Assembly (NCBI GenBank): GCA_014729085.1
Contig: WJKM01000008.1
Coordinates: forward strand, 163 to 64,162
DNA: 64,000 nucleotides
Reading direction: 5' to 3'
Origin: Candidatus Dojkabacteria bacterium
GTDB taxonomy: Bacteria; Patescibacteriota; Dojkabacteria; B142; WJKM01
The translations under genes and the position numbers were made by a program. The notes below the pieces were generated by a model that did not search any database, was not told the origin of the DNA, and was given only the letters and a program-made list of their open reading frames with translations. Below, piece after piece: positions 1 through 52,811 of the stretch (the first letter of the stretch is position 1; each line of letters opens with the position of its first letter).

Positions 1-153
1 ATAATTTGATTGACTTGCTTCACTTTTATCTGGAGCTTTACTTTCTCTAATGTTGTAAAGGATTCCAAATGTCAATAAAATTGTAACAAAAAGGATTATA
101 AAGATGAATACCACTTTTTTATTACTATTTTGAACTGTGAGAGAATTTTTCAT
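1..153 (-). CDS. N-terminal fragment of a membrane-anchored secreted protein (signal-anchor, then a KSEAS motif); the 3' part lies beyond the window
   Basis: Reverse complement of 1-153 is one open frame: MKNSLTVQNSNKKVVFIFIILFVTILLTFGILYNIRESKAPDKSEASQSNY. It has a basic N-terminus, a TM helix and the same post-TM SEAS motif seen in 176..1327 and the 39922-43289 family. The ATG is at 153..151. Confidence 0.4.
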   Translation of the reverse strand, partial: MKNSLTVQNSNKKVVFIFIILFVTILLTFGILYNIRESKAPDKSEASQSNY

Positions 154-175: not shown

Positions 176-1327
176 TTAACAACCATTTTTATATTTGTCT
201 ATAAAATTTTTAAAGTCATTTATGTCAATTATTTCATTCTCATCAGTATCTTTACTGCCACAATCTCCTATAGCTGTAGTATTACTACATGATTTCCCAT
301 ATAGTTCTTTAAAAGAGCTAAAGTCCGTAATATCTACCTGGAAATTTGAGTTTGTATCTATTGGACCACAACTGGGTTGAAGATTACTAGGTGAAGGAAT
401 GATAGTTGCTGAAATTACTTCTGTTTGTGTTAGGGTTGGAGTATTTGGTTGGGTTACAGTTGGATCTGTTGTAGTTCCAGTATATTCCATCTTTGCGATA
501 ACTGGAAAGTGGTCAGAGGATTTCATATTGTGATCAATATAGGCTTCAACCACCTTCCATTCTGAATTCTTTGAAACAAAAATATGATCAATTGTGGTTG
601 AATTTTCTCCTTTGCCACCGGATAGCTTATGCCATACCTCATCATTTACGCTATCTGTACATTGATCTGCTAATACTGGATTACATGCCTCGTAGAAATT
701 GGTTAAAAAGTTAGTGTAACATGAGGCTTTTTCGGACATATTAAAATCACCCAATAGAAATTTATTGTTGTTTTCATAATTCTTTTGAATTTTCAGTAAT
801 TCAAGATTACTTTTACATGGGTTTTTTGTGTTTGGGTGTATATTAAATAATCTTACTATATGTCCGGAAGGAAGAGTAACCTGGAAAGTCATAATTCTAC
901 GATCTTGAGCATCTGAATACGTTTGATAGTCTTCTATTGGGTAACGGCTAAAAATTGCCATATAATCTAATTCTTGTTTGGAGTTCATCTCCCACCCTTT
1001 TTCCTTTAATTGTTTTTTTAAAGTTTTATAATTATTGTTTGTATATATTTCCTGCATACAAATAAAATCTGGTTGTTTTGAGGCTATGTAATCAGTAATT
1101 TCATTCATTCTTTGTTCCAACTTTTTATAAAGTACATTGAAAGACATGAGTGTTATTTCCTCTTTTGCGAAGGAGTCTGATGCCTCACTTAATTCCGGAG
1201 CAGTTGATTGGTTTCTAATACTTTGGGAAATAAGTAAGATAATAATTAGTAAGGCTATTAATAAAAATACTATTAAAACTGAAGAACCCATTCTTTTTCT
1301 ATTATATTTATTAAAAGAGTTCATCAT
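176..1327 (-). CDS. Secreted endonuclease/exonuclease/phosphatase (EEP) family protein with a C-terminal Cys-bracketed dockerin-like double EF-hand module
   Basis: N-terminal TM anchor. The EEP hallmarks are present (ITLMSFNVL, LGDFNMSE, SDHFPVIAKMEY). The C-terminus reads CGPIDTNSNFQVDITDF...CGSKDTDENEIIDINDFKNFIDKYKNGC, i.e. two DxNxNxxxDxxD calcium loops. Confidence 0.6.
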   Translation of the reverse strand: MMNSFNKYNRKRMGSSVLIVFLLIALLIIILLISQSIRNQSTAPELSEASDSFAKEEITLMSFNVLYKKLEQRMNEITDYIASKQPDFICMQEIYTNNNYKTLKKQLKEKGWEMNSKQELDYMAIFSRYPIEDYQTYSDAQDRRIMTFQVTLPSGHIVRLFNIHPNTKNPCKSNLELLKIQKNYENNNKFLLGDFNMSEKASCYTNFLTNFYEACNPVLADQCTDSVNDEVWHKLSGGKGENSTTIDHIFVSKNSEWKVVEAYIDHNMKSSDHFPVIAKMEYTGTTTDPTVTQPNTPTLTQTEVISATIIPSPSNLQPSCGPIDTNSNFQVDITDFSSFKELYGKSCSNTTAIGDCGSKDTDENEIIDINDFKNFIDKYKNGC

Positions 1328-1788
1328 TTACTTGTACAATTATTTAGTTTATTCATTCTTATAAATTCATGTAGGTCGACTATGTTGATTCGTCCATTTG
1401 AATCAGCATCTTTGGGTCCGCAACCGTTATATTTTGGTATGTCAGAACAAGTTTTCTGATATACTTTAGTGAAATTGGTAAAATCGTCCAGATCTATTTT
1501 TTCGTTTTGATTTTCATCAATTGGGCCACAAAGTACTTTTTTTTCTATAATTTCTCCACTTTGATCTAAAATTTCACCACTTTCAGAGAGTAAGTGTTTA
1601 TTAAAAGTATTGTCTATAGAGGCTAGATTTATATTTTCTGATACTTTGATTACTTCGTCTTCAACCTGCCTATTTTTTTTCATAGTTATACTCATAACTA
1701 TTGCAGGTAAACAAATTACTAAGGTAATCAATAAGCTTAAAGCTGGTTTTTTTAATTTCTGTTTTTGATTTTTCGTGAATTTGAACAT
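1324..1788 (-). CDS. Small membrane-anchored protein made essentially of a dockerin-like double EF-hand module
   Basis: N-terminal TM, then CGPIDENQNEKIDLDDFTNF...CGPKDADSNGRINIVDLHEFI. There is a 4-nt ATGA start/stop overlap with 176..1327, suggesting translational coupling. Confidence 0.5.
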   Translation of the reverse strand: MFKFTKNQKQKLKKPALSLLITLVICLPAIVMSITMKKNRQVEDEVIKVSENINLASIDNTFNKHLLSESGEILDQSGEIIEKKVLCGPIDENQNEKIDLDDFTNFTKVYQKTCSDIPKYNGCGPKDADSNGRINIVDLHEFIRMNKLNNCTSK

Positions 1789-1818: not shown

Positions 1819-3057
1819 CTAATCGCATCCATGTTTATATAAATTAATAAAATTTTGGAAATCTATGATATCAATCAAACCGTTTCCATCCGAATCTTTA
1901 CTTCCGCAACCTCCGATTTGAATTGTATCAGTGCAGTTCTTTCCGTATATATTTTTAAAGGATTCAAAGTCTGTTATATCTACTTCAAAATTTGAATTTG
2001 TATCTATTGGTCCACATGTTTGCCCAATAACAGTAGGAACCGGTGAGGAAGTTTCAGTTGGATTTAAAGATGAAGTTGGTTTTATACTTGAAGTTGGATT
2101 TAAAGATGAAGTTGGTTTTGTACTTGAAGTTGGACTTTGAGTTATTGTATTAGTTGGGCTTGTTGTGATGGAGTTTATTGAAAATCTTCCAATTACTGGG
2201 TAATGGTCAGAAATTTTTTGGTTGTAATCTGTTTTTACTTCGATTACTTGTAAGTTCGTATTATGGAAAATATAATCAATTGCATATCCTCCGGAACTGG
2301 GATCCCCTACAGTTACTTCACAAGTCTTATTGCTAGATTGAGTACATGCATCTGTATAAAGTTTAGATAATTCTGGATAACAATATCTATCTTTTGTGAA
2401 GTTATAATCTCCAAGTATAAATGTATTTCGATCTTGATATTGTTTAACTACTCCCTTAAATTGATCAAAATAATCGTGATCCTTATTACAAGCTGGTACT
2501 GGGTGAGGATGATGATTAATCACCCATATATTGTTTCCTGAATTAGGGCTAATTTTGGCAGCTTGAATTACATGTTGTTCTCCACCGTAGGGAGAATCAA
2601 AAATATAGTTTTTATGATCAAGAATTGGGTATTTACTAAATATCGCATTGGATAGTGTTATTCCATCAATTTTAAGATTTTTCCTTTTTTTTACAATCAC
2701 ATACATCGGATAATTTTTTTCCTCTAATTTGGGTATTAGAAATTCATTTAAAGGTTTCCCATCTCTATCAAAAGGAAATTCTTGGAAGCCAATAATATCT
2801 ATTTCATTGTTAATAATGTAGTCGGCAAGCCCGTTAATATAGTTAGCATAATTTTTATTTTGTGTGGGATGCGAAACACGTAGATTAAATGTCATAAATG
2901 TTAGTTCATTTTCTTTGTTTTCTGAAGCTTTATCTCTAAAATCTAAGTTTTGCCTAGATATTTGATTAGCAAAGACTATGAATATTAAAAGGATTATGAA
3001 TAGGCCTAAAACTATAAATGATTTATATTTGGATTTTATACTATGAATCGTTTTCAT
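1819..3057 (-). CDS. Secreted EEP-family nuclease/phosphatase paralog with a Ser/Thr/Pro linker and C-terminal dockerin-like module
   Basis: EEP motifs are LTFMTFNL, GFQEF, LGDYNFTKD and SDHYPVIGRF. The linker is TSSLNPTSSIKPTSSLNPT. The C-terminus reads CGPIDTNSNFEVDITDFESF...CGSKDSDGNGLIDIIDFQNFINLYKHGC. Confidence 0.6.
   Translation of the reverse strand: MKTIHSIKSKYKSFIVLGLFIILLIFIVFANQISRQNLDFRDKASENKENELTFMTFNLRVSHPTQNKNYANYINGLADYIINNEIDIIGFQEFPFDRDGKPLNEFLIPKLEEKNYPMYVIVKKRKNLKIDGITLSNAIFSKYPILDHKNYIFDSPYGGEQHVIQAAKISPNSGNNIWVINHHPHPVPACNKDHDYFDQFKGVVKQYQDRNTFILGDYNFTKDRYCYPELSKLYTDACTQSSNKTCEVTVGDPSSGGYAIDYIFHNTNLQVIEVKTDYNQKISDHYPVIGRFSINSITTSPTNTITQSPTSSTKPTSSLNPTSSIKPTSSLNPTETSSPVPTVIGQTCGPIDTNSNFEVDITDFESFKNIYGKNCTDTIQIGGCGSKDSDGNGLIDIIDFQNFINLYKHGCD
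2057..2137. repeat. Near-perfect 36-bp tandem direct repeat (2.25 copies, 1 mismatch) encoding the SSLNPTSSIKPT linker of 1819..3057
   Basis: Units at 2057-2092 and 2093-2128 differ at a single base; a partial third copy runs 2129-2137. The repeat is in frame (12 aa per unit). Confidence 0.7.
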
Positions 3058-24499: not shown

Positions 24500-24525
24500 G
24501 TTTAAATTACCATGGATTAGAAGAA

Positions 24526-25368: not shown

Positions 25369-26232
25369 ATGTCAATAAAACAAGCTGTAATTAGCGATGC
25401 AGGTATTTCCAGTAGATTTCTACCAATTGTAAAAACTATTCCCAAATCTTTTCTTCCAATAGGTAATAAACCAATTATTCATTATTTGGTTGAAGAATGC
25501 GCGGAAGCCGGAGTGGAAAAAGTTATCATTGTTGCACGAGAAGAAACAAAAACTTTTTTTGATGATTACTTTCATAATAGCTGTGATGAGTTGGAAGAAC
25601 TATTAAAGAATATGAATAAACTTAATCGATTTAAAAGTGTTAAAAATGTATTCGATTTACCTAAGGTACAGGTGATAACTCAGGACTTAGACTTACCTTA
25701 TGGAACTGCAGCTCCTGTAATCTCTGCAAGGTCATATCTAACAGAAGAAGAGCCGTTTCTTTTTTTACATGCTGATGATTTAGTAATTGCTGATAACAAA
25801 GACTGTAAAGTTTTAGTAGATGAGTATGAAGAAAATTCTGATTATGCGGGTTATATGATTACTGAAGAAATTAGTTTAGAAAGGGTGCATCTATATGGGA
25901 TGGTAAAAACAAAGGGGCAAAACAAAGATCAATTAGATAGAATTGTGGAAAAACCAACCCAGAAAGACACTCCTTCACTTTTAGCATCTTATGGCAGATT
26001 TTTATATAAATACAAAATCTTCGAATATTTGGACATAGATAGACTTGGTAAAGATAATGAATTATGGAATGTTGATGCTTTGACTGCAATGGCACAAGAG
26101 TATCCAGTTAAAGTAGTTAAAAATAAGGGTACTTGGGTAACGACAGGAGATCCTTTGAATTATTTTAAAGCCCAGATTCTTTTTAGTAGAACGAAAAAGA
26201 AGTATTCTGAAATACTAGATAAGCCAAGCTAA
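25369..26232 (+). CDS. Sugar-phosphate nucleotidyltransferase (UTP-glucose-1-phosphate uridylyltransferase-like)
   Basis: N-terminal AVISDAGISSRFLPIVKTIPKSFLPIGNKPIIHY, the GxGxR/K nucleotidyltransferase signature. Confidence 0.65.
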   Translation: MSIKQAVISDAGISSRFLPIVKTIPKSFLPIGNKPIIHYLVEECAEAGVEKVIIVAREETKTFFDDYFHNSCDELEELLKNMNKLNRFKSVKNVFDLPKVQVITQDLDLPYGTAAPVISARSYLTEEEPFLFLHADDLVIADNKDCKVLVDEYEENSDYAGYMITEEISLERVHLYGMVKTKGQNKDQLDRIVEKPTQKDTPSLLASYGRFLYKYKIFEYLDIDRLGKDNELWNVDALTAMAQEYPVKVVKNKGTWVTTGDPLNYFKAQILFSRTKKKYSEILDKPS

Positions 26233-26243
26233 TATGGACTCTA

Positions 26244-27653
26244 ATGGCTAAATTGTTTTCTAAGAAAAAGACAAGTCTAATTTTAACTATGTTTTTAGTT
26301 ATTTTTTCAGTATTGATTGTGTTTGTTCTAAGCAGAAGAAACAAGGAGTTAAATACTAGGACAAACGCCTCAAATCAACTATCAAATTATATTATTCCAA
26401 AGAAAGTATATGTGTTGATATATAATCCAACTTTACAGCTGGAAGGTAATCCTACTCTTGTAGAATTTAAAAATTGGAATAATCCTAATGAACTAGTCCA
26501 ACAACTTGAGAATTGGTTTTTGGTCACTTCCGAAGAAAGAGTTCGTTATAACATAGTCTCTATCGAAGAAATTGATGCTATCCCTATCAAAGAAGATGGA
26601 TTTGAATATACTCAAGCTTCCTATTTAGAATGTTTAGAGGACGAAACTGAGTGTCACAAACCGGACATAGCAGATTATTCGGAAATTTTTAATAATAATT
26701 CTATATGTGAAAAATTTAATAACGGTGAGTTTGATGAATTATGGATGATTGCAGGTCCGTGGTTTGGATTTTATGAATCTAGACTAACTGGTCCAAATGC
26801 ATTTTATTATAATTCCCCTCCATTAAGAGGCACAAGTTGTAATAAACTTTTACCAATTATGGGTTTTAATTATGAAAGAGGTCTTGAGAATATGGTTCAT
26901 GATTATGGACACAGATTAGAGGATACGATGAAAAAAGTATATGGTTCATGGGATAGAAATTCATCAGCACATAATTGGAACAAGTTTGCATTAGTTGACT
27001 CCCAAGCTAATAGTTTTGATTTTAGTGGATGCGGTTTCTGTCATTTTCCACCTAATGCTATTGATGATTATGCTTATTCAGACACGAGAAACGTAAGATC
27101 TTATTGTAATCAATTTTACAATTATCCCAATTTGGACAACTTGAGTGATAATACAGATACTATTTCCTGCGATGTTTGGGGTTGTAATGAACTTGGATAT
27201 TTTAGATGGTTGTTTAGGCATATGCCGAAATATCAAGGCTATGGTCCAGATAAAAAATTAAATGATTGGTGGATGTATCTTATTGATCCCAATATTGTTC
27301 TTACAAACATAGTCCCAGATTATTGCCCAACTATTACTCCTACTCCTACTCCTACTAAAACTGCAACTAGTAGTCCCGTGATTACTGGTACCTCTACAGA
27401 AGACTCGACGCCTACAGAAGATCCGGAAACAACTATTACATATATTCCTACTTCAACTGAAATGGTTACAGAATCACCTATTGATAAAAAATCTGATTTT
27501 AACAAAGATGGAAAGGTTAATATAGTTGATTTTAGAATATTTATCGAATGCTATAAAGCTGAAACTTCGGAATGTGATTTAAATCGGGATACAAAAGTTG
27601 ATCTATATGATTTTGTTGAATTTCGCATGGATTATCTTCAAGAAAATAGTTAA
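26244..27653 (+). CDS. Membrane-anchored secreted protein with Thr/Pro linker and canonical C-terminal dockerin
   Basis: TM anchor and an unknown ~320-aa domain, then linker TITPTPTPTKTATSSPVITGTSTEDSTPTEDPETT. The dockerin reads DFNKDGKVNIVDFRIF...DLNRDTKVDLYDFVEF, a textbook DxNxDGxVNxxD pair. Confidence 0.55.
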   Translation: MAKLFSKKKTSLILTMFLVIFSVLIVFVLSRRNKELNTRTNASNQLSNYIIPKKVYVLIYNPTLQLEGNPTLVEFKNWNNPNELVQQLENWFLVTSEERVRYNIVSIEEIDAIPIKEDGFEYTQASYLECLEDETECHKPDIADYSEIFNNNSICEKFNNGEFDELWMIAGPWFGFYESRLTGPNAFYYNSPPLRGTSCNKLLPIMGFNYERGLENMVHDYGHRLEDTMKKVYGSWDRNSSAHNWNKFALVDSQANSFDFSGCGFCHFPPNAIDDYAYSDTRNVRSYCNQFYNYPNLDNLSDNTDTISCDVWGCNELGYFRWLFRHMPKYQGYGPDKKLNDWWMYLIDPNIVLTNIVPDYCPTITPTPTPTKTATSSPVITGTSTEDSTPTEDPETTITYIPTSTEMVTESPIDKKSDFNKDGKVNIVDFRIFIECYKAETSECDLNRDTKVDLYDFVEFRMDYLQENS

Positions 27654-31903: not shown

Positions 31904-32563
31904 CTAGTTCAATTGGAACATACTCATAGCAGATTGAAGGTCTTGAATTTCCTCTTTTGTACTATCTTCTTCGTAAGCTGTTGCGGCGGTATATATTGTT
32001 GATTCATCAGCTTTCCATAGAGCTTTAGTTTCGATTACCATGATGAAACCATCTCCCATATCAGCGGTTACCTTCGAAGTACACATTTCAGTTCCACCCT
32101 TTGAAGAATGTTCAGAGGATAGTATTTCACCAGTATAGACTGAGGATACTCCATTAGCCATTTCATCGCAAGCATTCTTGTCCCCCTCACCTATTTCTGA
32201 TCCAAGATCCATTTGGTTGGCTCCAATATTATTAGCACCACCAAGGTCATTCATCTCAGTTGATCGGAAGGATAGTTCTTGTTGAGGGTTATCATAGGCT
32301 TCATAGTAGCTTGGATAGTAAAAAGTGTATCCATCTCCAGCTGTAGAGTCAAGATTCTCATTATCTGTCTCAACCTCTTCAGAATCGTCTGCATCCATAT
32401 CTTCCTCGTCCTCAATATCTGCTTCGGTTTCAATTGGAGTTTCGTCTTCTGGGTTTCTGTCCGTTGTATCATCTGATCCAGGTGTACAACCTAAAACAAG
32501 AAAAGCAAGAAGAGCAACGAAAATTGCAAGCACTATGCTTAATCGTTTCTTTTTGATTTGCAT
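31904..32563 (-). CDS. Acidic lipoprotein, hypothetical
   Basis: MQIKKKRLSIVLAIFVALLAFLVLGCTPG has lipobox VLGC. It is followed by an extremely acidic D/E-rich region. Confidence 0.5.
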   Translation of the reverse strand: MQIKKKRLSIVLAIFVALLAFLVLGCTPGSDDTTDRNPEDETPIETEADIEDEEDMDADDSEEVETDNENLDSTAGDGYTFYYPSYYEAYDNPQQELSFRSTEMNDLGGANNIGANQMDLGSEIGEGDKNACDEMANGVSSVYTGEILSSEHSSKGGTEMCTSKVTADMGDGFIMVIETKALWKADESTIYTAATAYEEDSTKEEIQDLQSAMSMFQLN

Positions 32564-39815: not shown

Positions 39816-39921
39816 GTTGTATTTCCAACTTTAATTAAAGCTTTACCTTATAGGTAGATGATATTATAATTTGATTAAACAATAAAGCGTAAGAAATAAT
39901 TAAACCTACCAAGGTATCTTC

Positions 39922-40896
39922 ATGAAATTTAAATTCACAAATATTGGTGAAGATAGAAAAAGTAAACAGAAGTTAATTGTTGTTCTACTTTTATGTTTTC
40001 TTTTTTTAGTAATTGCCAATTCTATAGTTTTTGTTAGCAACTACTCAAAATATACAAGAACTGAAAAAACAGAAGCTTCCGATATAGAAAGTAAGTATTG
40101 GAATCATGATTTGTTTGATGGGCGATTGGAAGCGGTAAGCTGTGAACGTATAGTTGGATGGATAGGAACTAAAGATGATTTGATGGCACAGATGCCAGTT
40201 TTTTTTACTATAGGAGGTCCTTATGAGGGAAATGGAGTTGTGTTTAATCCCAATACAATAGCAGATATAAAACGAGAGAAAGCTGTATGTGATTTTTTGG
40301 ATGGTACTCTTAGTATGGCTGAAGAATGTGTTACCTGCGAAGGTACATCTTGTAATCATGGGTTCGAAATCAATCTTCCCAATTATACCGACTCTCCAAT
40401 TTTTAATAATAGCTCTAATAATAAGGTTTACGCTTATGGTGTTTATAAAGGACAAATTGCAGCTATTATGGATGGTCCTAGTTTTTCAAAATTTTTTCTT
40501 GAAATTCCGGAAAATTGTGGCGATGGATGGGATGGAAATTCAGATGAAATACCTACTTATACTGAAACTCCTACACCAGGCCCGGTTGAAATTCCCGAGG
40601 GCGTTAATTTTGATTTTAATTTAGATACTTTGATTGATCTGAATGATTTTACTTTATTTGCAAATGGTTATAGGGAGTGTAACAAACCGGATAATCCTGA
40701 CTCACAAAATTCTCCCGAATGCGAAATGTATAAAAGTACAGATGCTACTTTTGATTTCGATTTTAATGATGATCAAAAAGTTGATTTGAATGATTTCGTC
40801 ATTTTCGCACAAGTATATAAAGTTTGTAATAAACCAGGAGATACAGCAGCTCAAGACTCGACAGATTGTAATCAATATAAGGGAGGAGATAACTGA
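39922..40896 (+). CDS. Membrane-anchored secreted protein with C-terminal dockerin-like double EF-hand module (family member 1)
   Basis: TM, then the NYSKYTRTEKTEAS motif and an unknown ~190-aa domain. The dockerin-like part is DFNLDTLIDLNDFTLFANGY...DFNDDQKVDLNDFVIFAQVYKVC. Confidence 0.55.
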   Translation: MKFKFTNIGEDRKSKQKLIVVLLLCFLFLVIANSIVFVSNYSKYTRTEKTEASDIESKYWNHDLFDGRLEAVSCERIVGWIGTKDDLMAQMPVFFTIGGPYEGNGVVFNPNTIADIKREKAVCDFLDGTLSMAEECVTCEGTSCNHGFEINLPNYTDSPIFNNSSNNKVYAYGVYKGQIAAIMDGPSFSKFFLEIPENCGDGWDGNSDEIPTYTETPTPGPVEIPEGVNFDFNLDTLIDLNDFTLFANGYRECNKPDNPDSQNSPECEMYKSTDATFDFDFNDDQKVDLNDFVIFAQVYKVCNKPGDTAAQDSTDCNQYKGGDN

Positions 40897-41174
40897 TATA
40901 ATTCGATAAAATATTTATTGAAATTATTAGAAAAAAAAGGATTATTTTTACTAATCATAAACCAATTTAACCAACAACTATATTTTACTGATCGCAAATG
41001 CAATGTCTGGATTTCTAATAATACTGTGTAAATTATAATTTTTGGGGGTCCTAGTGCCGTTTTAAGATTAGAAGTTCGATTTGCTTACCTGTAGGTAGAT
41101 TGACCTACCGGAGAGGTACAATTGGACAATCTGATTTGAGAGAGGTATATATTTTTATAAGTAGAGTATAAAGT

Positions 41175-42566
41175 ATGAAGAAACTAAAATTCAAAAAAAT
41201 AGATGATAAGCAGACATATAGGAAACTTCTGCTGACAATATTTTTATTTGTCTTGGTAATTGTATTTTCAGTTTCAATTTATTTTGTACATAACTATTCA
41301 AAGTATAGTGAAATTAAAAAGAGTGAGGCAGCTGGCAATAATTGCTGTAATGAACCGGATTATAAAGTATGCGATGAAGACCATGAATGGGATGAAGGAT
41401 ATTATGCTTGTTTAAACGAAGAATGTGAGAAATGCGGTGGGGCTTCATGGGGTTCATGTAATGAAAATTGCAAGTGTGATCCTGGTGAGGATCATGTTAA
41501 GTGTCCTTCTGATTGTACAGATGAAGGTGTGGATGTACTAAAGCAAATAAATTTTGATTTTAATCTTGACGAAATTTTGGACTTATCTGATTTCACCCTA
41601 TTTGCTGAGGGATATAAGATTTGTAATTCAACGACAACAGAAAGTCCGCAAACAACCGAAGAATGTAAAGATTATAAAGAAGCAGACAGATCTTATGATT
41701 TTGATTTTAATGAAGATACTTGGCTTGACTTAAAAGATTTTGTTCATTTTGTTGAAGCATATAAAGTATGCAATTCAACGACACAAGACAATTCTCAAGA
41801 TAGTATCGAATGCAAGAAACTTAAGGGATTAGGACCTGAACCTACATGCGAAATTAGTCCAACATCTACTGCAGAACCCACTAGTGACCCAACAGATGAT
41901 CCTAGTCCAACAGCAGAACCAACAAATCCTCCTGATTTTGAGGATCCTGAAGGTAGTACTTCAATTGGTGGCGATTTTGAAGGTGAGTTCTATCATGATG
42001 GAGCTCCTGAATTGTATATTGCTAAGGACTGGAAAACCTGGTATGAAGATGGCTGTACAGCCGGGAAGTGTGGTACTTTTAATTGTGATGGGAGTCCAGC
42101 TTATTGCAGACGTCCTGAATTTAAAAAAGCGGATGGTACAAGGTTTAGAAATAGGGTAAGAACTGGACAGTATTCTCAGCAATGGTTTAATACTTTCGGT
42201 ACACATAATGCAGGTATTTATAGAAAAGTAAATGTTGGAACCGATAAACAGCTTAAAATGCAAGCATATGGATCGCAATGGACAGATGATGGTAGTGGTG
42301 GGTCAACCATTATGAATGGTAGAATTGGTATAGATCCAACTGGAGGCACGGATCCTAATAGTGATTCAGTTATATGGACAGACTGGACTCCCCTACCAAA
42401 TGTCAAACCCGAAGACAGTGGTGAATGGAAGAAGCTTGAAATAGAGGCTACGAGCGAAGTTGATGAAGTGACAATTTTCATTATGTCGAATAATCAGTAT
42501 CCCCTTACAAATAATGATGTCTATTGGGATGATGTTATATTATATATTGATGGTGAAAAAATCTAA
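41175..42566 (+). CDS. Membrane-anchored secreted Cys-rich protein with internal dockerin-like module and C-terminal CBM-like beta-sandwich domain (family member 2)
   Basis: TM and NYSKYSEIKKSEAA, then a Cys-rich EGF-like stretch. The dockerin-like part is DFNLDEILDLSDF...DFNEDTWLDLKDF. A PT linker follows, and the C-terminus ends ...NNDVYWDDVILYIDGEKI. Confidence 0.55.
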   Translation: MKKLKFKKIDDKQTYRKLLLTIFLFVLVIVFSVSIYFVHNYSKYSEIKKSEAAGNNCCNEPDYKVCDEDHEWDEGYYACLNEECEKCGGASWGSCNENCKCDPGEDHVKCPSDCTDEGVDVLKQINFDFNLDEILDLSDFTLFAEGYKICNSTTTESPQTTEECKDYKEADRSYDFDFNEDTWLDLKDFVHFVEAYKVCNSTTQDNSQDSIECKKLKGLGPEPTCEISPTSTAEPTSDPTDDPSPTAEPTNPPDFEDPEGSTSIGGDFEGEFYHDGAPELYIAKDWKTWYEDGCTAGKCGTFNCDGSPAYCRRPEFKKADGTRFRNRVRTGQYSQQWFNTFGTHNAGIYRKVNVGTDKQLKMQAYGSQWTDDGSGGSTIMNGRIGIDPTGGTDPNSDSVIWTDWTPLPNVKPEDSGEWKKLEIEATSEVDEVTIFIMSNNQYPLTNNDVYWDDVILYIDGEKI

Positions 42567-42581
42567 ATTATTTATTGATTA

Positions 42582-43289
42582 ATGAAGAAGTTATATCAAA
42601 AGAATCAGGTCAAAAAAATTTTGGTCATAATTCTATTTTCAATTCTCCTTATTACCTTATTTCTTTCTGCTTTATTTGTTCAAAATTATTCTAGATATAG
42701 TGAGGTTAAGGAATCTGAGGCCTCTTCCTCAAAACCGAATATAGATTTCAATACAGATAAGAATATAGACTTAAATGATTTCAGAAATTTTGTAGAGGTT
42801 TATAGAATATGTAATAGTTCTGACACAGATAATCCACAGAATAGCTCTCAATGTATCTCACAAAAAGCTGATTATGATTTAGATGATAATGGGAAAGTTG
42901 ATATTCAGGATTTTGTTGTATTTGCAGATGGATACAAGATTTGTAATAAGCCTGGAGATTCGAATGCACAGGATTCTAATGAATGTAAGGCATATAAAGG
43001 AAGTGAGGACGATATAACCATTGAACCTTCCCCTACTAGTACAGAAGACTTAGATGGAGAATGCACTTGCCATGTAACAGGTAAAGGTTGTGGGAAGAAG
43101 GGTTTATTTAAAGGTTGCGAAGATTTTGATGAAACTGAGTCAAGATGTGTGAAAGAGAACGAATGTACCGAATCCAATTGTTGTACTGAGGCAGAAAAGG
43201 TTGCTGAACAAGAAGCCGAAAATAGAGGAGCTGTTCTAGAAAGTTTTGAATGTAATGCAGAGGTGCAGTGGACAGAAGGGGGCTGTTGA
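42582..43289 (+). CDS. Membrane-anchored secreted protein with dockerin-like module and Cys-rich C-terminus (family member 3)
   Basis: TM and NYSRYSEVKESEAS. The dockerin-like part is DFNTDKNIDLNDFRNF...DYDLDDNGKVDIQDFVVF. The C-terminal 100 aa contain about 14 Cys. Confidence 0.5.
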   Translation: MKKLYQKNQVKKILVIILFSILLITLFLSALFVQNYSRYSEVKESEASSSKPNIDFNTDKNIDLNDFRNFVEVYRICNSSDTDNPQNSSQCISQKADYDLDDNGKVDIQDFVVFADGYKICNKPGDSNAQDSNECKAYKGSEDDITIEPSPTSTEDLDGECTCHVTGKGCGKKGLFKGCEDFDETESRCVKENECTESNCCTEAEKVAEQEAENRGAVLESFECNAEVQWTEGGC

Positions 43290-43355
43290 TGACTTTTAAT
43301 AATTAAATTGATTAAAACACGATTGAGTCGTGTTTTTGTTTTATAATAAGTTATT

Positions 43356-45039: not shown

Positions 45040-46320
45040 TTGCGGAAAGAATTATTTAGGAATTTTCGCATATATTTAATATTTTATTTCAAAATTATGG
45101 AACAACTTCCAGTCTTTGATTTCTACAACGATCAAGCTATAGATACTCCAGATTTTCCCTCAAGTTTAATAGAAGCAGATATAGATGGAGATGGTGACTT
45201 AGACATCTTGGCATTAAATGCGCAGAGAGTAGACAGTGTAGATGGTGATTATTTTAATCACTATATTTTACTTAACGAAGAAGGCAAATTCCAATTCGAA
45301 AACCCTCTCATGTTTCAATCTGGTGAGAGACTTGGGGATGCAGCCTTTGGAGATTTAGATAACGACGGTGATTTAGATATTTACACAACATCCTATTGGA
45401 GAGGTGAAGATAGTGTATATCTAAACACAGGTAATCAGTTTAATATTTTAAATCAGAATGAGACTTATGAACATGAAGATGGTTTAGTTGAGCTTGTAGA
45501 TATAGATGATGATGGAGATTTGGATGCAATTGTGACAACGCAGTCTCATAATTACCAAGATCCACCTCAAAACCCAACCCAAGTAAGGTTGAATGATGGT
45601 AGTGGCCAGTTTGCAAATTCTGTAACCCTTGGTAGGAGCTCAAGGACTGTTGATACTGCAATTGCAGATGTGGACGGTGATGGTGATCAAGATTATTTTC
45701 AAAGATCATATGAGAGAGGTTTGGAATTTTTTGAAAATCAGGGGGATGGCAGTTTTGCTGAGGGTGAAGCTATAAATATAGGGACCACAATCTACTCTTT
45801 TGATTTAGGAGATATTGATGGAGATGGTAAGGATGATTTAGTTGTATTGCATCAAGATAAGCCTGAAGAAGTACTAGAGATGGGAGCTTTATCATGGTTG
45901 GAACGGAATGGAGATAGTTGGCAAATTGAAGGTGATCATTTTTGGAATGGATTAATTCCTTATAATCAGGATATAGAACTTGGAGATGTAGATGGAGATG
46001 GGGATTTTGATGTTTTAATTGGTGGTGGAGCAGAAAAAAGTTATTTTCCGGAAGTTCATTATGATGTTCAACCTGCGAGGGTGGTGCATAATGCCGGTTT
46101 ATCTCCCTTTGAAAATGTAGTGGAGAAAGAGTTAAAGAGAAATAATATAGAAACTCCAATAATTGATCCATATGATTTGAGTTTAGTTCTAGCTGATATT
46201 GATGGAGACGGTAAAGATGAACCGATTATATCTAGTTTTTTTAATGAAGGGCAGGATATAACAATATGGGATAATGATCCATTATTATTTTTACCGGTAG
46301 TAGTTAGAAATTTTAGCTAA
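45040..46320 (+). CDS. FG-GAP / VCBS-type repeat (beta-propeller) protein
   Basis: Repeated DIDGDGDLDI, DLDNDGDLDI, DIDDDGDLDA, DVDGDGDQD and DIDGDGKDD calcium-binding propeller repeats. The start is ambiguous: Met20 at 45097 is an alternative, and there is no obvious signal peptide. Confidence 0.55.
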   Translation: MRKELFRNFRIYLIFYFKIMEQLPVFDFYNDQAIDTPDFPSSLIEADIDGDGDLDILALNAQRVDSVDGDYFNHYILLNEEGKFQFENPLMFQSGERLGDAAFGDLDNDGDLDIYTTSYWRGEDSVYLNTGNQFNILNQNETYEHEDGLVELVDIDDDGDLDAIVTTQSHNYQDPPQNPTQVRLNDGSGQFANSVTLGRSSRTVDTAIADVDGDGDQDYFQRSYERGLEFFENQGDGSFAEGEAINIGTTIYSFDLGDIDGDGKDDLVVLHQDKPEEVLEMGALSWLERNGDSWQIEGDHFWNGLIPYNQDIELGDVDGDGDFDVLIGGGAEKSYFPEVHYDVQPARVVHNAGLSPFENVVEKELKRNNIETPIIDPYDLSLVLADIDGDGKDEPIISSFFNEGQDITIWDNDPLLFLPVVVRNFS

Positions 46321-46384: not shown

Positions 46385-48178
46385 TTAACCACAATTCTTC
46401 TGTTTATATAAAATAATAAAATTTTTAAAGTCAATAATATCAACTTTTCCGTTTCTATCACTGTCTTTTGGTCCACAACCTTCCACAATAGGTGAGTCCG
46501 AACAGGTTTTACTGTAAACATCTTTAAAAGGCTCAAAGTCATAGAGATCGACTTTATTATTATTGTTATGGTCAAGTTGACCGCAAATTACTCCTATTGG
46601 TGTACTAACCGCTGAAGATGTTACAGTAACAGTTGGAGTTGGTGTTTTAACTGTCGAAGATGTTACAGTAACAGTTGCTGTTGGAGTATTAGTTACTGAT
46701 GGACTTGTGGTAGTAGTTAAGGTAGGGCTATGTGAAGGTTCACTTGTTTGTGTTGGTGAATTAAGTACTTTACCTATTGTTATAAGATTTCCCGTCGGTT
46801 TTGGAGAAGACCAGTGTGTATAATTTCCTTCTATAAATGTTCCAATTATATCAGTAGTGAAATTTCCAATAAAATTTAATTGGCCAACTGTTAGATTGGA
46901 ACTTGTATATATTTCAGTTTCCGAAATATTGGAATTACTAATTGAGTATTTAGTTATTGTCTGGTATTGATTATTTCGTCCGTATATCTGTTTAATTCCG
47001 TCTTCTATAATTATTTCATAAGGCTGGAAAAGACCTAGATGATGGTAATTATCGATTTCCCATTTACTACCATCCCAGCTAGCTATTTCTAAGTATGGTG
47101 TATAAGGCATATTGCCAACTGTATTTATTTGTTTGAACCTTGTGAATGCAATGACTGGCTTGTTATTATAAATATCAACAGCCATTCTGGTATTCCCGCC
47201 TTCTTTTCCAAATTCCAGTTTGTTTTCATAACCAAATATTTCACAGTGCTGTTCAAATTCACTTCTGGTTATAGTACTTCCAAGGTTATGCTTTGAGGCT
47301 GAATATATATTATTATCTTCGAAGTTGAAGAATATATAATAGTGCTTATTAAAATAGTCGTTGTGATTTTGATGGATTCCAAAAGTAATATGAAGTCCTT
47401 CGGGATCGCTTTCGTAATGTATGGCTTTTGTATAAACTGTATTCCAAACATCTTCACTTTTCCCAGGGTCAATCAATTTATGAGATGTCCAGGTTTCACC
47501 ATTATCAGTTGATTTTAAATAATACTCTGGTTCATACCAATTTGAAAGCGGAGGATTAATAACACCATTCCCTTTGGTTTTTCGAAATAAATAGTATAAA
47601 TCTCCGTTTTTTGCTTTATATGCAGCTCCATATGTAGCTTCATTTGTACCGTTTATTTCATTGATTTCCCAGTTCGTAATATCAGTTGTGGAAGAGCTTG
47701 TTGCTTGAATAACCTTATGATTTGCATGCATGGAATATAAAACATGTAGTCGTCCCATACTATCCTTTAAGATCTGAGGATAATTATGTGAGTCTGGTTG
47801 AACTGGGGAGTCTAGAATTTTATGTGGCTCTGACCAATTCTCTAGATTATGATCATAATACATAATATAAGGCGAACAAGATGATAGCCCTTCTTTTTGA
47901 TCATTTGAAAAAACCACAAATGTTCGATTTGAGTCTGTATCATAAATTCCAGAATATATTTGTGTTTTTTGTCTGGCATAAGTTTCAACTATATTTTCGG
48001 CTATTATCTGTGTTTCGTATTGATCAGACGAAATTTGAGCACCGGATTTTTTAATATTCAGTTCAGATTGTTTTTCGATTTTAAAGGAAATAAGTAGAGA
48101 TGTCCCAATTAAGAATACAACTATGAAAGATAACAGAATAACGAAATGAAATTTTTTAGATGTTTCAGCTTTATGCAT
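46385..48178 (-). CDS. Membrane-anchored BNR/Asp-box (sialidase/glycoside-hydrolase-like beta-propeller) protein with Thr/Pro linker and C-terminal dockerin-like module
   Basis: TM anchor and the Asp-box YLKSTDNGETW (SxDxGxTW). The linker is TSPSVTNTPTATVTVTSSTVKTPTPTVTVTSS. The C-terminus reads CGQLDHNNNNKVDLYDFEPF...CGPKDSDRNGKVDIIDFKNFIILYKQKNC. Confidence 0.6.
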   Translation of the reverse strand: MHKAETSKKFHFVILLSFIVVFLIGTSLLISFKIEKQSELNIKKSGAQISSDQYETQIIAENIVETYARQKTQIYSGIYDTDSNRTFVVFSNDQKEGLSSCSPYIMYYDHNLENWSEPHKILDSPVQPDSHNYPQILKDSMGRLHVLYSMHANHKVIQATSSSTTDITNWEINEINGTNEATYGAAYKAKNGDLYYLFRKTKGNGVINPPLSNWYEPEYYLKSTDNGETWTSHKLIDPGKSEDVWNTVYTKAIHYESDPEGLHITFGIHQNHNDYFNKHYYIFFNFEDNNIYSASKHNLGSTITRSEFEQHCEIFGYENKLEFGKEGGNTRMAVDIYNNKPVIAFTRFKQINTVGNMPYTPYLEIASWDGSKWEIDNYHHLGLFQPYEIIIEDGIKQIYGRNNQYQTITKYSISNSNISETEIYTSSNLTVGQLNFIGNFTTDIIGTFIEGNYTHWSSPKPTGNLITIGKVLNSPTQTSEPSHSPTLTTTTSPSVTNTPTATVTVTSSTVKTPTPTVTVTSSAVSTPIGVICGQLDHNNNNKVDLYDFEPFKDVYSKTCSDSPIVEGCGPKDSDRNGKVDIIDFKNFIILYKQKNCG

Positions 48179-49372: not shown

Positions 49373-49831
49373 TTATGAAGAAGATTGAAAACCTGTAGTT
49401 TCTGGAGATCGATTCACAACTAACCAATATAGACCTACTTTTTTTACAACCTCAGAAAACTTGTCAAAATCTACCGGTTTTTGGATAAAACTGTTTGCAC
49501 CAAGTTCATACCCTTTTTCTATATCTGCTTGAAGATTAGAGGAAGTGAGTATGATAACAGGTATATTTTTTGTTTTAGGATTGTCTTTTATTAGCTTTAG
49601 AACCTCTAAACCATGTAGTTTGGGAAGTTTGAGATCAAGAAGAATTAATTTGGGATTTTCGTTTTTATTTCTATCTGAATATTGATTTTTACAAAATAAA
49701 AAGTCTAGCGCTTCTTCGCCATCACTAACTAAATGAATATTATTAGATATATGGTTGTTTCGGAGAGATAATAGTATTAATTCTGCATCATTTGGATCGT
49801 CTTCGATTAATAAAATTTCAACTGTGTTCAT
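49373..49831 (-). CDS. Single-domain response regulator (CheY/Rcp1-like REC only)
   Basis: ILLIEDDPNDAELI, the phospho-acceptor LILLDLKLPKLHGLEVLK, and T/K residues in ILTSS...QKP. Confidence 0.8.
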   Translation of the reverse strand: MNTVEILLIEDDPNDAELILLSLRNNHISNNIHLVSDGEEALDFLFCKNQYSDRNKNENPKLILLDLKLPKLHGLEVLKLIKDNPKTKNIPVIILTSSNLQADIEKGYELGANSFIQKPVDFDKFSEVVKKVGLYWLVVNRSPETTGFQSSS

Positions 49832-49902
49832 ATTGAATTCTTAAGATGTAGGCTATATTAAACATTGCATATTAAACAGAATGATCTGTGTGTCAACTTG
49901 AT

Positions 49903-50328
49903 TTATTTTTGCACAAGAGACCAATATAAACCTGCTTGTTTTACTGCTTCTGAGAACTGGGTAAAATCAAGAGGTTTTTGAATATAGCTATTTGCTCCTA
50001 GTTTATATCCATCAATCATATCTTTATCAAGTTCGGATGAAGTAAAAATCGCGACCGGAATATTTTTAGTATTATCATTTTCTCTGATATTTTTGAGGAC
50101 TTCTAAACCGTTAATTTTGGGAAGTTTAAGATCTAGCAGAATCAGTTGTGGTTTGTTCTCGTCAGTCCTATTTGAATATTTTCCTTGGCAATGCAGGAAA
50201 TCCAAGGCTTCCTGACCGTCAGTAACCAGATGAATTTTATTTAGAATATTATTTCGGCGCAGGGTTAGAAGAGCAAGTTCAGCATCATTTGCATCATCTT
50301 CAACTAATAATATTTCAATATTTTCCAT
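49903..50328 (-). CDS. Single-domain response regulator (REC only), paralog
   Basis: ILLVEDDANDAELA...LILLDLKLPKINGLEVLK...IFTSS...QKP. It is a paralog of 49373..49831. Confidence 0.8.
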   Translation of the reverse strand: MENIEILLVEDDANDAELALLTLRRNNILNKIHLVTDGQEALDFLHCQGKYSNRTDENKPQLILLDLKLPKINGLEVLKNIRENDNTKNIPVAIFTSSELDKDMIDGYKLGANSYIQKPLDFTQFSEAVKQAGLYWSLVQK

Positions 50329-50342
50329 GACTACAATTAAAA

Positions 50343-52811
50343 TTACAAGTTAAACTTAATATAGAAAGTCGCCCCTTTACCGGGTTTTCCGACGGCTTTT
50401 ATACTACCATTATGTTTTTCAATAATTCGTTTCACTGTAGCAAGGCCTATGCCAATACCTTCAAAATCTTTTGCTTTATGCAATCTCTGGAAAATACCAA
50501 AGAGTTGATTTTGGTATTTCATATCGAAACCTGCTCCATTATCTTTGATATAGAAACCGGTTTCATTTTGTTTTAAAGGTCCTATCTCAATCTTAGCATT
50601 TTCTGTATTGCTTGTATATTTGATTGCATTGGAGATTAGGTTACGAAATACTGTTGTCATTAATATCTCATCACATTCTAAAGTAGGTAGTTCATGTATT
50701 ATTACTTTAATTTCGTATTCGGAAATTTCATCTTCAAATTCAGATACTACTTGAGTTACTATTTCGTTAAGATCAAGCTTGGTGAGAGTAAGCGCTTTTC
50801 TTCCAATTCTAGATAGATCGAGCAATCCATCAATTAGTTTATTCATCTTTGTTATGCCATTAATAATTTTTTCAAAATATGTTTTAGCTTTGTTAGGCAA
50901 TTTATCTTTATATTCAGTATTTATTATTTGCGAAAAACCCCCTATATGTCTCAGTGGGGCTCTTAAATCATGTGATACAGAGTAGGTAAAAGCTTCAAGC
51001 TCCTCATTTGCAATTTTTAATTCCTTGGTTCTTTTACGAACCCTTTCGTCTAACTCCTTACTTAGTTTTCTATATTTTGATTCACTCAATTTCAGCTCTT
51101 TAGATGCTGTTTTTAGTTCAACAATATTTCCTATTATTTCAGAAATAGTGGTTGTTAGATTGATTGCATTGTCCGAAAATAGGTTACTATTCTTATTATC
51201 TTGTTTCGTAAGTCTGGAAAGTTCAAGTTTACCTATTATTTTGTCATTCGAACTAATAGTATGAGATATTGAATTCTCACTCTCTGAATAATTTCTAGAT
51301 AAATAGGCCTGGTTATTTACTATTATGCGTGCTGTGATTTGATCATTATTTACTGAAATTTTTGGAATTATATCCGCAATTTTTTGAATAGTCTCATTGA
51401 TTGTAAGGTCAGTTTTTTGAAGAAGTTTAGTAATATTATATAGGCAATTCAGTTCTCTAACCCGCTGGAATAATTCTTGAGTCCGCTTTTCAAGGTTTTC
51501 TTTCAATTGTTGTTCTTCGGTTACATCTTTATAAATAGCTACTATTTCTCCGGTAGATAATTTATATACATAATTATCTCTCCATCCAGCTATTCTTTTA
51601 TCTTTATACATTTTTAAGGGAAAGTGTTTGGGTTTTCCAGTTTCCCATACTTTTTGAAAAACTTCAAAAAGTCCGAATTTTTTTATACTTGGGAATATTT
51701 GTAAAACGCTTTTGCCAATTATGTCTTCTCGTTTAATTTTTTCAGTTTTTTCTGCTGCTTTATTAAAATCTTTAAAGATAAAGTCACTTCCATTATCTCT
51801 AGCCTCATATATTGCTACACAGTTGCTCATATTATCAAATAGTTCTTTAAATTTTTGTTCTGTTAAAAGTAGTTTTTCTGAGGTTTCCTTTTCGAAAGTT
51901 ATATCTCTTATAATTAACGTAAAATAGATTTCGTTTTCAAATGTATATTTACTTGGAGAAATTTCAATATTAATTATTCTTCCATATCTATCCTTACCGT
52001 ATAATCTGCTTACATTATTCTTATTTTTTATATTAGTAATTATGTTTTGAAATTTAGTTTTATTTAGCAATATTTTGGATATGTGTTTATCTAAGAGTTC
52101 GGATTCATTGTAATTAAAGATTTTTTTTGCTGCTTCGTTTAAGGATTTGATTTTAAAAGAAGAGTCGATAGAAATAATTGCTTCATTAACATTTTCTATC
52201 ACTGAATTTACGAAGTTTTCGTGTTTAGTAAATTGCTTAACTCGAATATTATTTAATGTATTTGTATTCCATTTGTATATAAGAGTAATGATGACAATGA
52301 TACTAATAAAACTAAAAATTCCATAAAAAATATCCTCTAGGGTTAAGTTTGGATGAATATATGAATATAAAGGCAGAGTTAATAAAAAAAGTAGATATGT
52401 AAAAGACAATCTTTTGATATCCTGAAATATACAGGAAATTAATACTGGTACTGCTAGAAAAGTCAACATATCTGGTAAATCTAGTCCTATATATAAAATT
52501 AGTAGAAATAAAATCCAGACTAAAATCGTGGATCCCCAGAAAATATAATTTTTTTTACTTAAAATAAAAATAATAAATAAAATAAGAATTATTAGTAAAT
52601 TTTTATCTAATAATCTAAAACTGTAGGGATTAAATATATGAGAGGATATTGTAGATAAAATTAAGAAAGACATTAATGTAAAGGACGTAAGGCTTAAGAT
52701 TTGAGATTGACGACGTAATTTAGGATCAGGAATTGTTTTAGAAGGTTTAATAATAAACTTTTTAAATTTATTAATAAATCTGAGGATTGAATTTTTAAAT
52801 TTATCCTCCAT
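50343..52811 (-). CDS. Sensor histidine kinase with polytopic N-terminal sensor, PAS domains, HisKA and HATPase_c
   Basis: About 6 TM helices and two PAS-like regions. The H-box is SHDLRAPLRHI. The HATPase N-box is NLISNAIKY and the G-boxes are KDNGAGF / GIGIGLATV. Confidence 0.8.
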   Translation of the reverse strand: MEDKFKNSILRFINKFKKFIIKPSKTIPDPKLRRQSQILSLTSFTLMSFLILSTISSHIFNPYSFRLLDKNLLIILILFIIFILSKKNYIFWGSTILVWILFLLILYIGLDLPDMLTFLAVPVLISCIFQDIKRLSFTYLLFLLTLPLYSYIHPNLTLEDIFYGIFSFISIIVIITLIYKWNTNTLNNIRVKQFTKHENFVNSVIENVNEAIISIDSSFKIKSLNEAAKKIFNYNESELLDKHISKILLNKTKFQNIITNIKNKNNVSRLYGKDRYGRIINIEISPSKYTFENEIYFTLIIRDITFEKETSEKLLLTEQKFKELFDNMSNCVAIYEARDNGSDFIFKDFNKAAEKTEKIKREDIIGKSVLQIFPSIKKFGLFEVFQKVWETGKPKHFPLKMYKDKRIAGWRDNYVYKLSTGEIVAIYKDVTEEQQLKENLEKRTQELFQRVRELNCLYNITKLLQKTDLTINETIQKIADIIPKISVNNDQITARIIVNNQAYLSRNYSESENSISHTISSNDKIIGKLELSRLTKQDNKNSNLFSDNAINLTTTISEIIGNIVELKTASKELKLSESKYRKLSKELDERVRKRTKELKIANEELEAFTYSVSHDLRAPLRHIGGFSQIINTEYKDKLPNKAKTYFEKIINGITKMNKLIDGLLDLSRIGRKALTLTKLDLNEIVTQVVSEFEDEISEYEIKVIIHELPTLECDEILMTTVFRNLISNAIKYTSNTENAKIEIGPLKQNETGFYIKDNGAGFDMKYQNQLFGIFQRLHKAKDFEGIGIGLATVKRIIEKHNGSIKAVGKPGKGATFYIKFNL

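Follow-up and report, generated by a model that had tools for sequence, protein, structure and literature searches.

Exported dockerin-like proteins of a small Dojkabacteria family share a family-specific leader with a candidate processing site

Three tandem genes encode exported dockerin-like proteins

We describe three tandem genes from a metagenome-assembled genome of Candidatus Dojkabacteria, located on the 64,577-bp contig WJKM01000008.1; the genome data in the analysis are the 64-kb stretch formed by positions 163 to 64,162 of this contig (the window, ~31% G+C), and coordinates are those of the window unless another locus is named. The genes, taken from an open reading frame (ORF) list, are referred to as p1 (39922..40896, 324 residues; GF362_02290, MBD3362525.1), p2 (41175..42566, 463 residues; GF362_02295, MBD3362526.1) and p3 (42582..43289, 235 residues; GF362_02300, MBD3362527.1); all lie on the plus strand, and the NCBI label of each product is "hypothetical protein". 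A preliminary description of this DNA had pointed to three plus-strand ORFs whose products open with a basic stretch and a membrane helix, and these are indeed present. Alignment of the three proteins identified what they have in common, namely a Lys-rich n-region, a 21-residue hydrophobic helix and a motif behind the helix, together with two calcium loops; the remaining domains are unlike one another. In p1 the leader is followed by a beta-sandwich passenger (residues ~64–215) and then by two dockerin-like loops with Cys-bracketed linkers. In p2 it is followed by a Cys-rich module (residues 55–118), the dockerin-like loops (residues 128–189), a Pro/Thr/Ser-rich linker and a jelly roll resembling a carbohydrate-binding module (CBM; residues ~261–463), and in p3 directly by the loops (residues 55–111), after which comes a Cys-rich acidic tail ending in GGC. 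The domains that set the three proteins apart had been described as unrelated middle domains, and while they do differ, they are not all in the middle, the Cys-rich part of p3 being C-terminal and the CBM-like domain of p2 lying after the loops. The products of p1–p3 are exported surface proteins made up of a ~52-residue leader, a calcium-binding dockerin/EF-hand-like pair and exchangeable passenger domains, and they belong to a very small family of Dojkabacteria, so far unannotated, whose exported dockerin-like members have a leader specific to the family.

The two dockerin-like segments reported for each protein were recovered with the regular expression DxNxDxxxDxxDF, which found loops at residues 231 and 280 of p1, 128 and 177 of p2, and 55 and 99 of p3. 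The p1 pair (40612..40797, plus strand) consists of DFNLDTLIDLNDF (residues 231–243) and DFNDDQKVDLNDF (residues 280–292), with a helix and a C..C linker between them; a short helix and a C..C linker follow each loop in all three proteins, the helices being present in the AlphaFold models at low confidence, and p1–p3 each have the tandem EF-hand-like loop-plus-helix arrangement of dockerins. The dockerin label holds for these canonical loops but not for the family profiles, whose cut-offs were not reached: against Pfam Dockerin_1 (PF00404, cut-off 22.9 bits) p1 scored 10.9 bits and p3 10.6 bits, with no match for p2, and against NCBIfam dockerin_GC (NF041540, cut-off 29 bits) p3 scored 13.5 bits, while three other proteins of the window, 176–1327, 1819–3057 and 26244–27653, reached 19.3, 19.5 and 24.3 bits, respectively. 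As the scores of p1–p3 fall well below the cut-offs, and as their loops are 44–49 residues apart rather than 27–36 and carry Cys-bracketed inserts, we treat the dockerin label of these three proteins as a resemblance. A further difference is that the module is internal or N-proximal in p2 and p3, not C-terminal. A leader, an enzyme or binding domain, a Pro/Thr-rich linker and a dockerin are the layout of secreted cellulosome-type proteins, and with the proteins of PF00404 and NF041540 there is likeness in the signal, the catalytic or binding domain, the Pro/Thr linker and the two EF-hand-like loops, each with a helix; moreover, several window proteins end in GC, and that encoded at 26244–27653 passes the Pfam cut-off. 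No cohesin was found among the proteins of the window.

The CBM-like beta-sandwich proposed for p2 (41955..42563, plus strand) was borne out by phmmer, AlphaFold2 and Foldseek. The C-terminal ~200 residues of p2 have homologues at the N-terminus of P0002 and many other LysM-repeat proteins (phmmer E-values down to 5e-24), in which the GIDPTGGTDP and NDVYxDD segments of this domain are conserved, and the AlphaFold2 model of residues 261–463 is a jelly roll with a predicted local distance difference test score (pLDDT) of >90. Foldseek matched this jelly roll to CBM61, CBM4, CBM16 and CBM22 with E-values of 1e-8 to 1e-5, and also to a hyaluronan-binding module; the matched structures 2xon (CBM61), 2y6j (CBM4-2) and 2zey (CBM16) had E-values of 1e-7 to 5e-6. 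The domain has the fold of the CBM4/16/22/61 superfamily, but at the level of sequence it differs from these families in having no Pfam match to any of them. The Cys-rich module of p2 (41337..41528, plus strand) has a homologous counterpart behind the leader of P0015, a distant homologue described below; the "EGF-like" label that it had been given was not confirmed, there being no Pfam match and low AlphaFold confidence. For p1 the AlphaFold2 model was poor (pLDDT 54), the passenger being a low-confidence beta-sandwich. A fold search with this model gave only non-significant immunoglobulin-like matches, Pfam and NCBIfam hold no family for the leader or the p1 passenger, and a PDB sequence search with a profile of the p1 orthologues yielded no meaningful match.

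A selected motif behind the membrane helix

In the alignment of p1–p3 the motif reads FV(S/H/Q)NYS(K/R)Y(T/S)(R/E)(T/I/V)(E/K)(K/E)(T/S)EA(S/A). It is FVSNYSKYTRTEKTEA in p1 (40030..40077, plus strand; residues 37–52), FVHNYSKYSEIKKSEA in p2 (41283..41330, plus strand; residues 37–52) and FVQNYSRYSEVKESEA in p3 (42675..42722, plus strand; residues 32–47), and in each protein its end forms a candidate -3/-1 site (TEA↓S, SEA↓A and SEA↓S, the arrow marking the candidate cut), which in p2 lies three residues ahead of the NNCC that opens the Cys-rich module. The core N[YFL][SN][KR]Y[STA][ER] occurs three times in the six reading frames of the window, all three in p1–p3. Four to eight Lys or Arg residues precede the helix in p1–p3 and their orthologues, making the n-region positively charged, and the Kyte-Doolittle means for the helix over 19-residue windows are 2.9–3.1; the leader has the N-proximal helix of at least ~20 residues, with positive charge on the N-terminal side, that marks a signal anchor.

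To call the motif almost invariant, as had been done, overstates its conservation, since over its 16 residues p1 is 62% identical to p2 and 50% identical to p3, about as much as in the dockerin-like region (51–54%). However, p1–p3 use differing codons for six of the eight motif residues that are invariant (e.g., AAC/AAT, TAC/TAT, TCA/TCT, GAA/GAG and GCT/GCA/GCC), and at the nucleotide level the three aligned leaders reach just 70% identity per column; these findings indicate purifying selection on the motif peptide and argue against recent homogenization by gene conversion. The motif is a conserved and selected peptide feature just outside a signal-anchor-like helix. Its FVxNYSKY part, with two Tyr, an Asn and a Lys after the helix, would lie at the membrane-water interface as a spacer of fixed length.

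The motif belongs to a single gene family

An exhaustive HMMER search with a 59-position leader profile against 1.84 billion protein cluster representatives gave eight matches at E ≤ 1e-3. Seven of these are this gene family (p1, p2, p3, P0045, P0047, P0048 and P0049), the eighth, P0046, being a repeat of hydrophobic segments and a spurious match to the profile. P0045 is a p3-like fragment from another sample, with FVKNYSKYSEIKESQAL, and the other three are orthologues of p1 from three other assemblies, P0047 (locus L001; leader FVNQFSKYAETKQSEAS), P0048 (L004; leader FVNNLSKYSETEDASAS) and P0049 (L002; leader FVANLNKYSETEDAEAG), each with an overall identity to p1 in the range of 38–43%. The p1 orthologues keep the motif in the degenerate form FVxN[YFL][SN]KY[SA]ET..xA. 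The preliminary description had named the finding that would undo it, a motif confined to the three recent duplicates, and this does not apply, as the motif is also present in P0047, P0048, P0049 and P0045; the search among the cluster representatives returned these seven proteins of one family and no non-homologous carrier of NYSKYSE. Between p1 and its three orthologues the membrane helix is 21–26% identical, the 16-residue motif 50–56% and the passenger domain 42–48%; by these identities the motif is the best-kept part of the leader, with a small margin over the globular passenger domain. The FVxN[YFL][SN][KR]Y[STA][ER] part is family-specific, inherited and held by purifying selection.

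P0047 and P0048 are each the product of a single gene between a UvrD/PD-(D/E)XK (AddA-like) helicase gene and uvrC, and that of P0049 lies two genes upstream of uvrC. Because related Dojkabacteria have a single p1 orthologue at this helicase–uvrC locus, p1 represents the ancestral gene, to which a tandem expansion specific to this lineage has added p2 and p3. Which gene comes after uvrC varies among the loci: in the window (45040–46320, plus strand) it encodes an FG-GAP repeat protein without an obvious signal at the called TTG start, and in L002 (13575–14882, minus strand) a surface protein with an SLH domain and a classical signal peptide.

The family is also small by other measures. Each member is a singleton cluster in a collection of 15 billion proteins, and two scans of 185,579 species-representative genomes, with the pattern pairs [LYV]FV[QHS]NYS[KR]Y plus NFDFNLD and GWAGTKSD plus FNPGxxAD, gave pattern matches and no confirmed relative. 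No family member was found in two scans of viral contigs. When 5.8 billion proteins were searched by word index, the 59-residue N-terminal profile gave no match at all and missed even the query proteins, so this result is uninformative for so short a query; the same kind of search with full-length p3 returned only p3 itself, and an exact look-up of p2 in an assembly index gave no record. In the literature searched the motif is undescribed, and no account of GC-type dockerins was found there. Metagenomes scanned for the dockerin-like module found at the C-terminus of the nuclease family described below gave one locus, L005, and no further member of the p1–p3 family. L005 (3585–7624 of JAESFU010000399.1, high G+C) encodes three tandem paralogues with ordinary signal peptides and C-terminal CPSDFDxSGFVD...FESGC, which are textbook GC-type dockerins. 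It was rejected as a relative, being from a high-GC organism and having ordinary signal peptides and true GC-type dockerins (DFDGSGFVD...FESGC) unlike the modules of p1–p3.

A more distant homologue is P0015 (L006), from a contig that resembles those of the Candidate Phyla Radiation (CPR) and has 50% G+C, which matches the leader and Cys-rich module of p2 with a BLASTP E-value of 9e-20 over p2 residues 3–118. In this alignment HNYSKYSEIKKSEA↓AGNNCC of p2 corresponds to LSNQRQEIRSSA↓NVTNNCC of P0015; the helix, the spacer and the small-x-Ala (SSA) are retained in P0015, and NYSKY is not. In this region (6803–12593 of L006, Logan SRR25057012) the P0015 gene lies within a row of genes for exported Pro/Thr-rich and Cys-rich proteins, and this row is directly downstream of two genes for small single-pass proteins that resemble PilN and PilO by eye.

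The end of the leader recurs in other dockerin-like proteins of the window

The window encodes nine dockerin-like proteins if one probable case is counted. Beside p1–p3 these include two paralogues of the endonuclease/exonuclease/phosphatase family on the minus strand, one (176..1327) with the leader QSIRNQSTAPELSEA↓S (...APELSEASD), a linker rich in Pro, Thr and Ser and, at the C-terminus, a dockerin-like module that contains Cys and ends in GC, and the other (1819..3057) with the leader NQISRQNLDFRDKAS and a C-terminal dockerin-like module. Between them on the same strand is the gene for a 154-residue protein (1324..1788) that consists of a leader-type N-terminus and a dockerin-like module only. 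A 469-residue protein (26244..27653, plus strand; leader SRRNKELNTRTNA↓S) has a C-terminal module that scores 24.0 bits against the Pfam Dockerin_1 cut-off of 22.9 bits, and a BNR/sialidase-like protein (46385..48178, minus strand; leader KIEKQSELNIKKSGA↓Q) likewise ends in a dockerin-like module. The ninth is a truncated gene whose N-terminal part (1..153, minus strand) encodes a basic n-region, a 20-residue helix and NIRESKAPDKSEA↓S (...APDKSEASQ); its product is probably dockerin-like because the leader is paralogous to that of the nuclease at 176–1327, the C-terminal part lying outside the window so that the loops are not visible.

All nine proteins have one N-terminal build, with a basic n-region, a helix of ~17–21 residues and then 13–16 polar or charged residues to the first well-placed Ala. 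In the 19,297 residues of the real proteins of the window (1–153 counted) [ST]EA[SA] was observed five times, as against ~0.75 expected, and all five occurrences are at residues 44–50, 13–16 residues past the N-terminal helix of a dockerin-like protein. The carriers are p1–p3 and two members of the unrelated nuclease family, which agrees with the earlier observation that SEAS recurs in 176..1327 and in the truncated gene at 1..153. In the same place the proteins of genes 26244 and 46385 have TNA↓S and SGA↓Q, respectively. The seven members of the p1–p3 family all have Ala at position -1, with T/S/S/S/S/A/A at -3, a variable residue at -2 and S/A/S/L/S/S/G at +1; a small residue at -3 with Ala at -1 is also found in 176–1327, 1–153, 26244 and 46385, and in every case the first mature domain starts 2–10 residues after the Ala. 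When the leader profile was run against the 198 ORFs of the window, the six best real-gene matches after p1–p3 were the six other dockerin-like proteins (4.5–9.6 bits), all of which outscored every other N-terminally anchored protein; a spurious antisense ORF (29887–30051, 8.0 bits) ranks among these six. Of the motif, the terminal [S/T/A]-x-A followed by S, A or G is the only part that is common to the unrelated dockerin-like exported proteins of the same genome.

A candidate processing site and its rivals

The shared end of the leader, small-x-Ala and then another small residue, is what type I signal peptidase ordinarily recognizes (the -3/-1, or Ala-X-Ala, rule). The reading that we prefer over an uncleaved anchor, and to which we give about an even chance, is that the end of the leader is a candidate processing site, with cleavage or shedding after its Ala. 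The basic n-region and 21-residue helix would drive Sec-dependent insertion with the N-terminus remaining inside, and the ectodomain would then be freed from the helix by a cut after the Ala, made by an enzyme with type I signal peptidase specificity or by a membrane-proximal sheddase of like specificity. The dockerin-like module would then hold the freed protein on the surface, a partner cell or a glycan. The leaders resemble Sec signal peptides cut by type I signal peptidase in their basic n-region, hydrophobic core, small residue at -3, Ala at -1, variable -2 and the position of the site at the start of the mature domain.

A number of observations weigh against processing at this site. The h-region has 21 residues here rather than about 7–15, and the site is 13–16 residues past the core and ~35 from the start of the h-region, whereas classical cleavage occurs 12–20 residues from that start and lengthened h-regions make uncleaved anchors (PMC6589146). 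The 14-residue spacer, with about five charged residues, would be an unusual c-region, and within the family its sequence is conserved. Two of the nine dockerin-like proteins have no good site, the protein at 1819–3057 having Ala at +14 but Asp at -3 and that at 1324–1788 no clear small-x-Ala at +13–16, and the [ST]EA[SA] statistics rest on about five independent families. In addition, canonical signals occur in the same window, i.e., a short classical signal peptide (...FFSLAHA↓RSY) in the DUF2207 protein at 22484–24499 and a lipoprotein signal (...LVLGC) in that at 31904–32563, so the long leaders are not simply the normal signal peptide of this lineage. The AlphaFold models are of no help to the processing reading, as the motif is part of one continuous helix in p2 (residues 12–54) and is disordered in p1 (helix from residue 12; residues 39–63 with pLDDT <50), and they do not decide between a cleaved leader and an anchor. 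We also considered a cut within the helix itself, at a Ser that is conserved four residues ahead of FV (ANS↓IVFV, SVS↓IYFV), which falls within the 12–20 residue range; this was set aside, as there is Phe at -3 in p3 and P0047, no helix breaker, and a mature start that would have four hydrophobic residues.

The distance of ~35 residues from the h-region start and the charged spacer make an uncleaved signal anchor a serious rival, to which we would assign a sizeable minority share of the probability. The proteins would then be type II (N-in, C-out), with NYSKYSE..SEA as a short juxtamembrane stalk, possibly a helical extension, that sets the distance or orientation of the ectodomain, and the Ala would reflect a helix-cap or linker preference. 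The 21-residue h-region with a site so far from its start is the textbook profile of a signal anchor (PMC6589146), the single helix modelled for p2 and the canonical short signal peptides on other exported proteins of the window point the same way, and the sequence-specific conservation of NYSKY would be unexpected in a discarded leader. The likeness to uncleaved type II anchors extends to the long N-proximal helix, the positive-inside n-region and the short polar juxtamembrane segment. However, an anchor leaves unexplained why [ST]EA[SA] occurs only at this place, and in two unrelated families, and why across the orthologues -1 is invariably Ala, -3 always small and -2 variable. Such a position-specific small-x-Ala across unrelated families differs from what is seen in anchors, as does the linker-plus-dockerin layout, which is typical of released proteins; it would also be unusual for a protein to be fixed at both ends, by a membrane tether of only ~15 residues and by a dockerin-like module with a distal Pro/Thr linker. 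A bolder form of the processing idea, which we regard as unlikely, is that these leaders are a distinct Dojkabacteria, perhaps CPR, class of export leader for dockerin-like proteins, with a full helix, a charged spacer of 13–16 residues and [S/T/A]-x-A, processed away from the membrane surface. Processing would in that case be by a signal peptidase of unusual reach or by a separate sheddase, and family-specific spacers such as NYSKYSE would tune recognition or timing.

The preliminary description had proposed that the motif marks a processing or sorting site; a processing site at its end is plausible, but an undescribed sorting system is not what the distribution of the motif in one family suggests. 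Such a dedicated N-terminal signal, YSIRK- or SipW-like, would mark the dockerin-like surface proteins of Dojkabacteria for a specialised peptidase or factor, and we consider it more doubtful still than a distinct leader class. In its favour are the conservation of the motif in the orthologues relative to the helix, the presence of the leader build in all nine dockerin-like proteins of the window and in none of the other exported ones, and the fixed position of [ST]EA[SA]. It is also true, as the preliminary description had it, that the motif is not a recognised one: NCBIfam and Pfam identified no described signal (lipobox, twin-arginine, prepilin class III, YSIRK, KxYKxGKxW or SipW-type TIGR04088) in p1–p3, and by inspection their leaders have no L-x-x-C, RR-x-F-L-K, G↓F..E before the helix or YSIRK. 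The terminal [ST]EA[SA], however, is ordinary type I signal peptidase specificity, and since it fits this enzyme the shared part of the leader needs no new one. Signals of the YSIRK-G/S (Gram-positive surface proteins) and SipW-dependent (TasA/TapA, TIGR04088) kinds are similar in that some surface proteins have a conserved motif within their export signal or beside it, and they set a precedent for signal peptides with additional sorting information, but YSIRK lies in the n-region, before the hydrophobic core, and both it and SipW-type motifs are found on many unrelated substrates, whereas NYSKYSE follows the helix and is found on one gene family. With one to three substrates per genome, all of them homologous, a sorting signal cannot be told apart from family inheritance, and in P0015 the SxA site is kept where NYSKY is not. 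Pfam annotation of essentially every gene in the window brought up no candidate for the processing enzyme, be it a signal peptidase, a sortase, a rhomboid or another kind; the surrounding genes are those of DNA repair, cell division, transport and stress, and no peptidase or sorting enzyme was found beside the orthologues in loci L001, L002 and L004. Because the motif is found in one family only and no peptidase gene is nearby, we regard it as a family leader and not as a general sorting signal. The opposite extreme, that the motif is conserved only through recent duplication or gene conversion and has no function of its own, seems to us very improbable. The family is tiny, and among the paralogues the motif (50–62%) is no better kept than the dockerin-like region (51–54%), as such an artefact would have it; the synonymous differences at six of eight invariant residues and the 70% nucleotide identity speak against recent conversion, and the persistence of the motif in orthologues of 38–43% identity, next to a helix that has fallen to 21–26%, largely refutes it.

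Expression signals and other genes of the window

As p3 starts 15 bp after p2, these two genes are probably co-transcribed. A promoter-like TTTACC-17-TATAAT with the palindrome TACCTTATAGGTA (39842..39870, plus strand) lies upstream of p1, although a promoter scan of the locus gave no more than chance (14 sites vs 17.4 expected), and a related palindrome, TACCTGTAGGTA (41086..41097, plus strand), is found in the 278-bp spacer between p1 and p2. TACCT-N2-4-AGGTA has four matches in the window (39844–39856, 41086–41097, 40332–40345 and 25658–25668) against 0.21 expected, three of them in the p1–p3 locus, and those upstream of p1 and of p2 both extend to TAGGTAGAT. This palindrome may be a shared operator; it was not found in the loci of the relatives. 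After p3 and before uvrC there is a terminator-like hairpin with a T-run (43314..43336, plus strand), and Rfam identified only a tRNA in the window.

Elsewhere in the window, two proteins of bacterial thrombospondin type 3 calcium-binding repeats (11838–12656 and 14544–15083, both minus strand) are encoded by genes interleaved with three paralogous TrmB-family regulator genes (12803–13627, 13662–14489 and 15289–16122, all plus strand). The region 49373–52811 (minus strand) encodes a PAS-domain histidine kinase and then two tandem stand-alone response-regulator receiver proteins of 141 and 152 residues. A 177-residue ORF with no family match (24424–24957, plus strand) overlaps the 3' end of the DUF2207 gene (22484–24499, plus strand) by 76 bases, and is either no gene at all or one with a wrongly called start.

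Implications for the surface proteins of Dojkabacteria

What is gained here is an unannotated seven-member protein family with a candidate processing site, and not a new sorting pathway. CPR bacteria, Dojkabacteria included, are believed to spend their lives on other cells, to which they attach, and their surface proteins are the likely apparatus of contact and feeding. A dockerin-domain protein is essential in a cultivated Saccharibacterium, where it was suggested to target host glycans (PMC10633639). Any reading of CPR secretomes is affected by whether nucleases, sialidase-like proteins and carbohydrate-binding proteins, such as those encoded in this window, are released and re-docked or remain tethered to the membrane, and the same question bears on the validity of the standard signal-peptide rules in CPR lineages. 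If the leaders described here are indeed a distinct class of processed leader, much of the CPR surface proteome would be wrongly called membrane-anchored by standard predictors.

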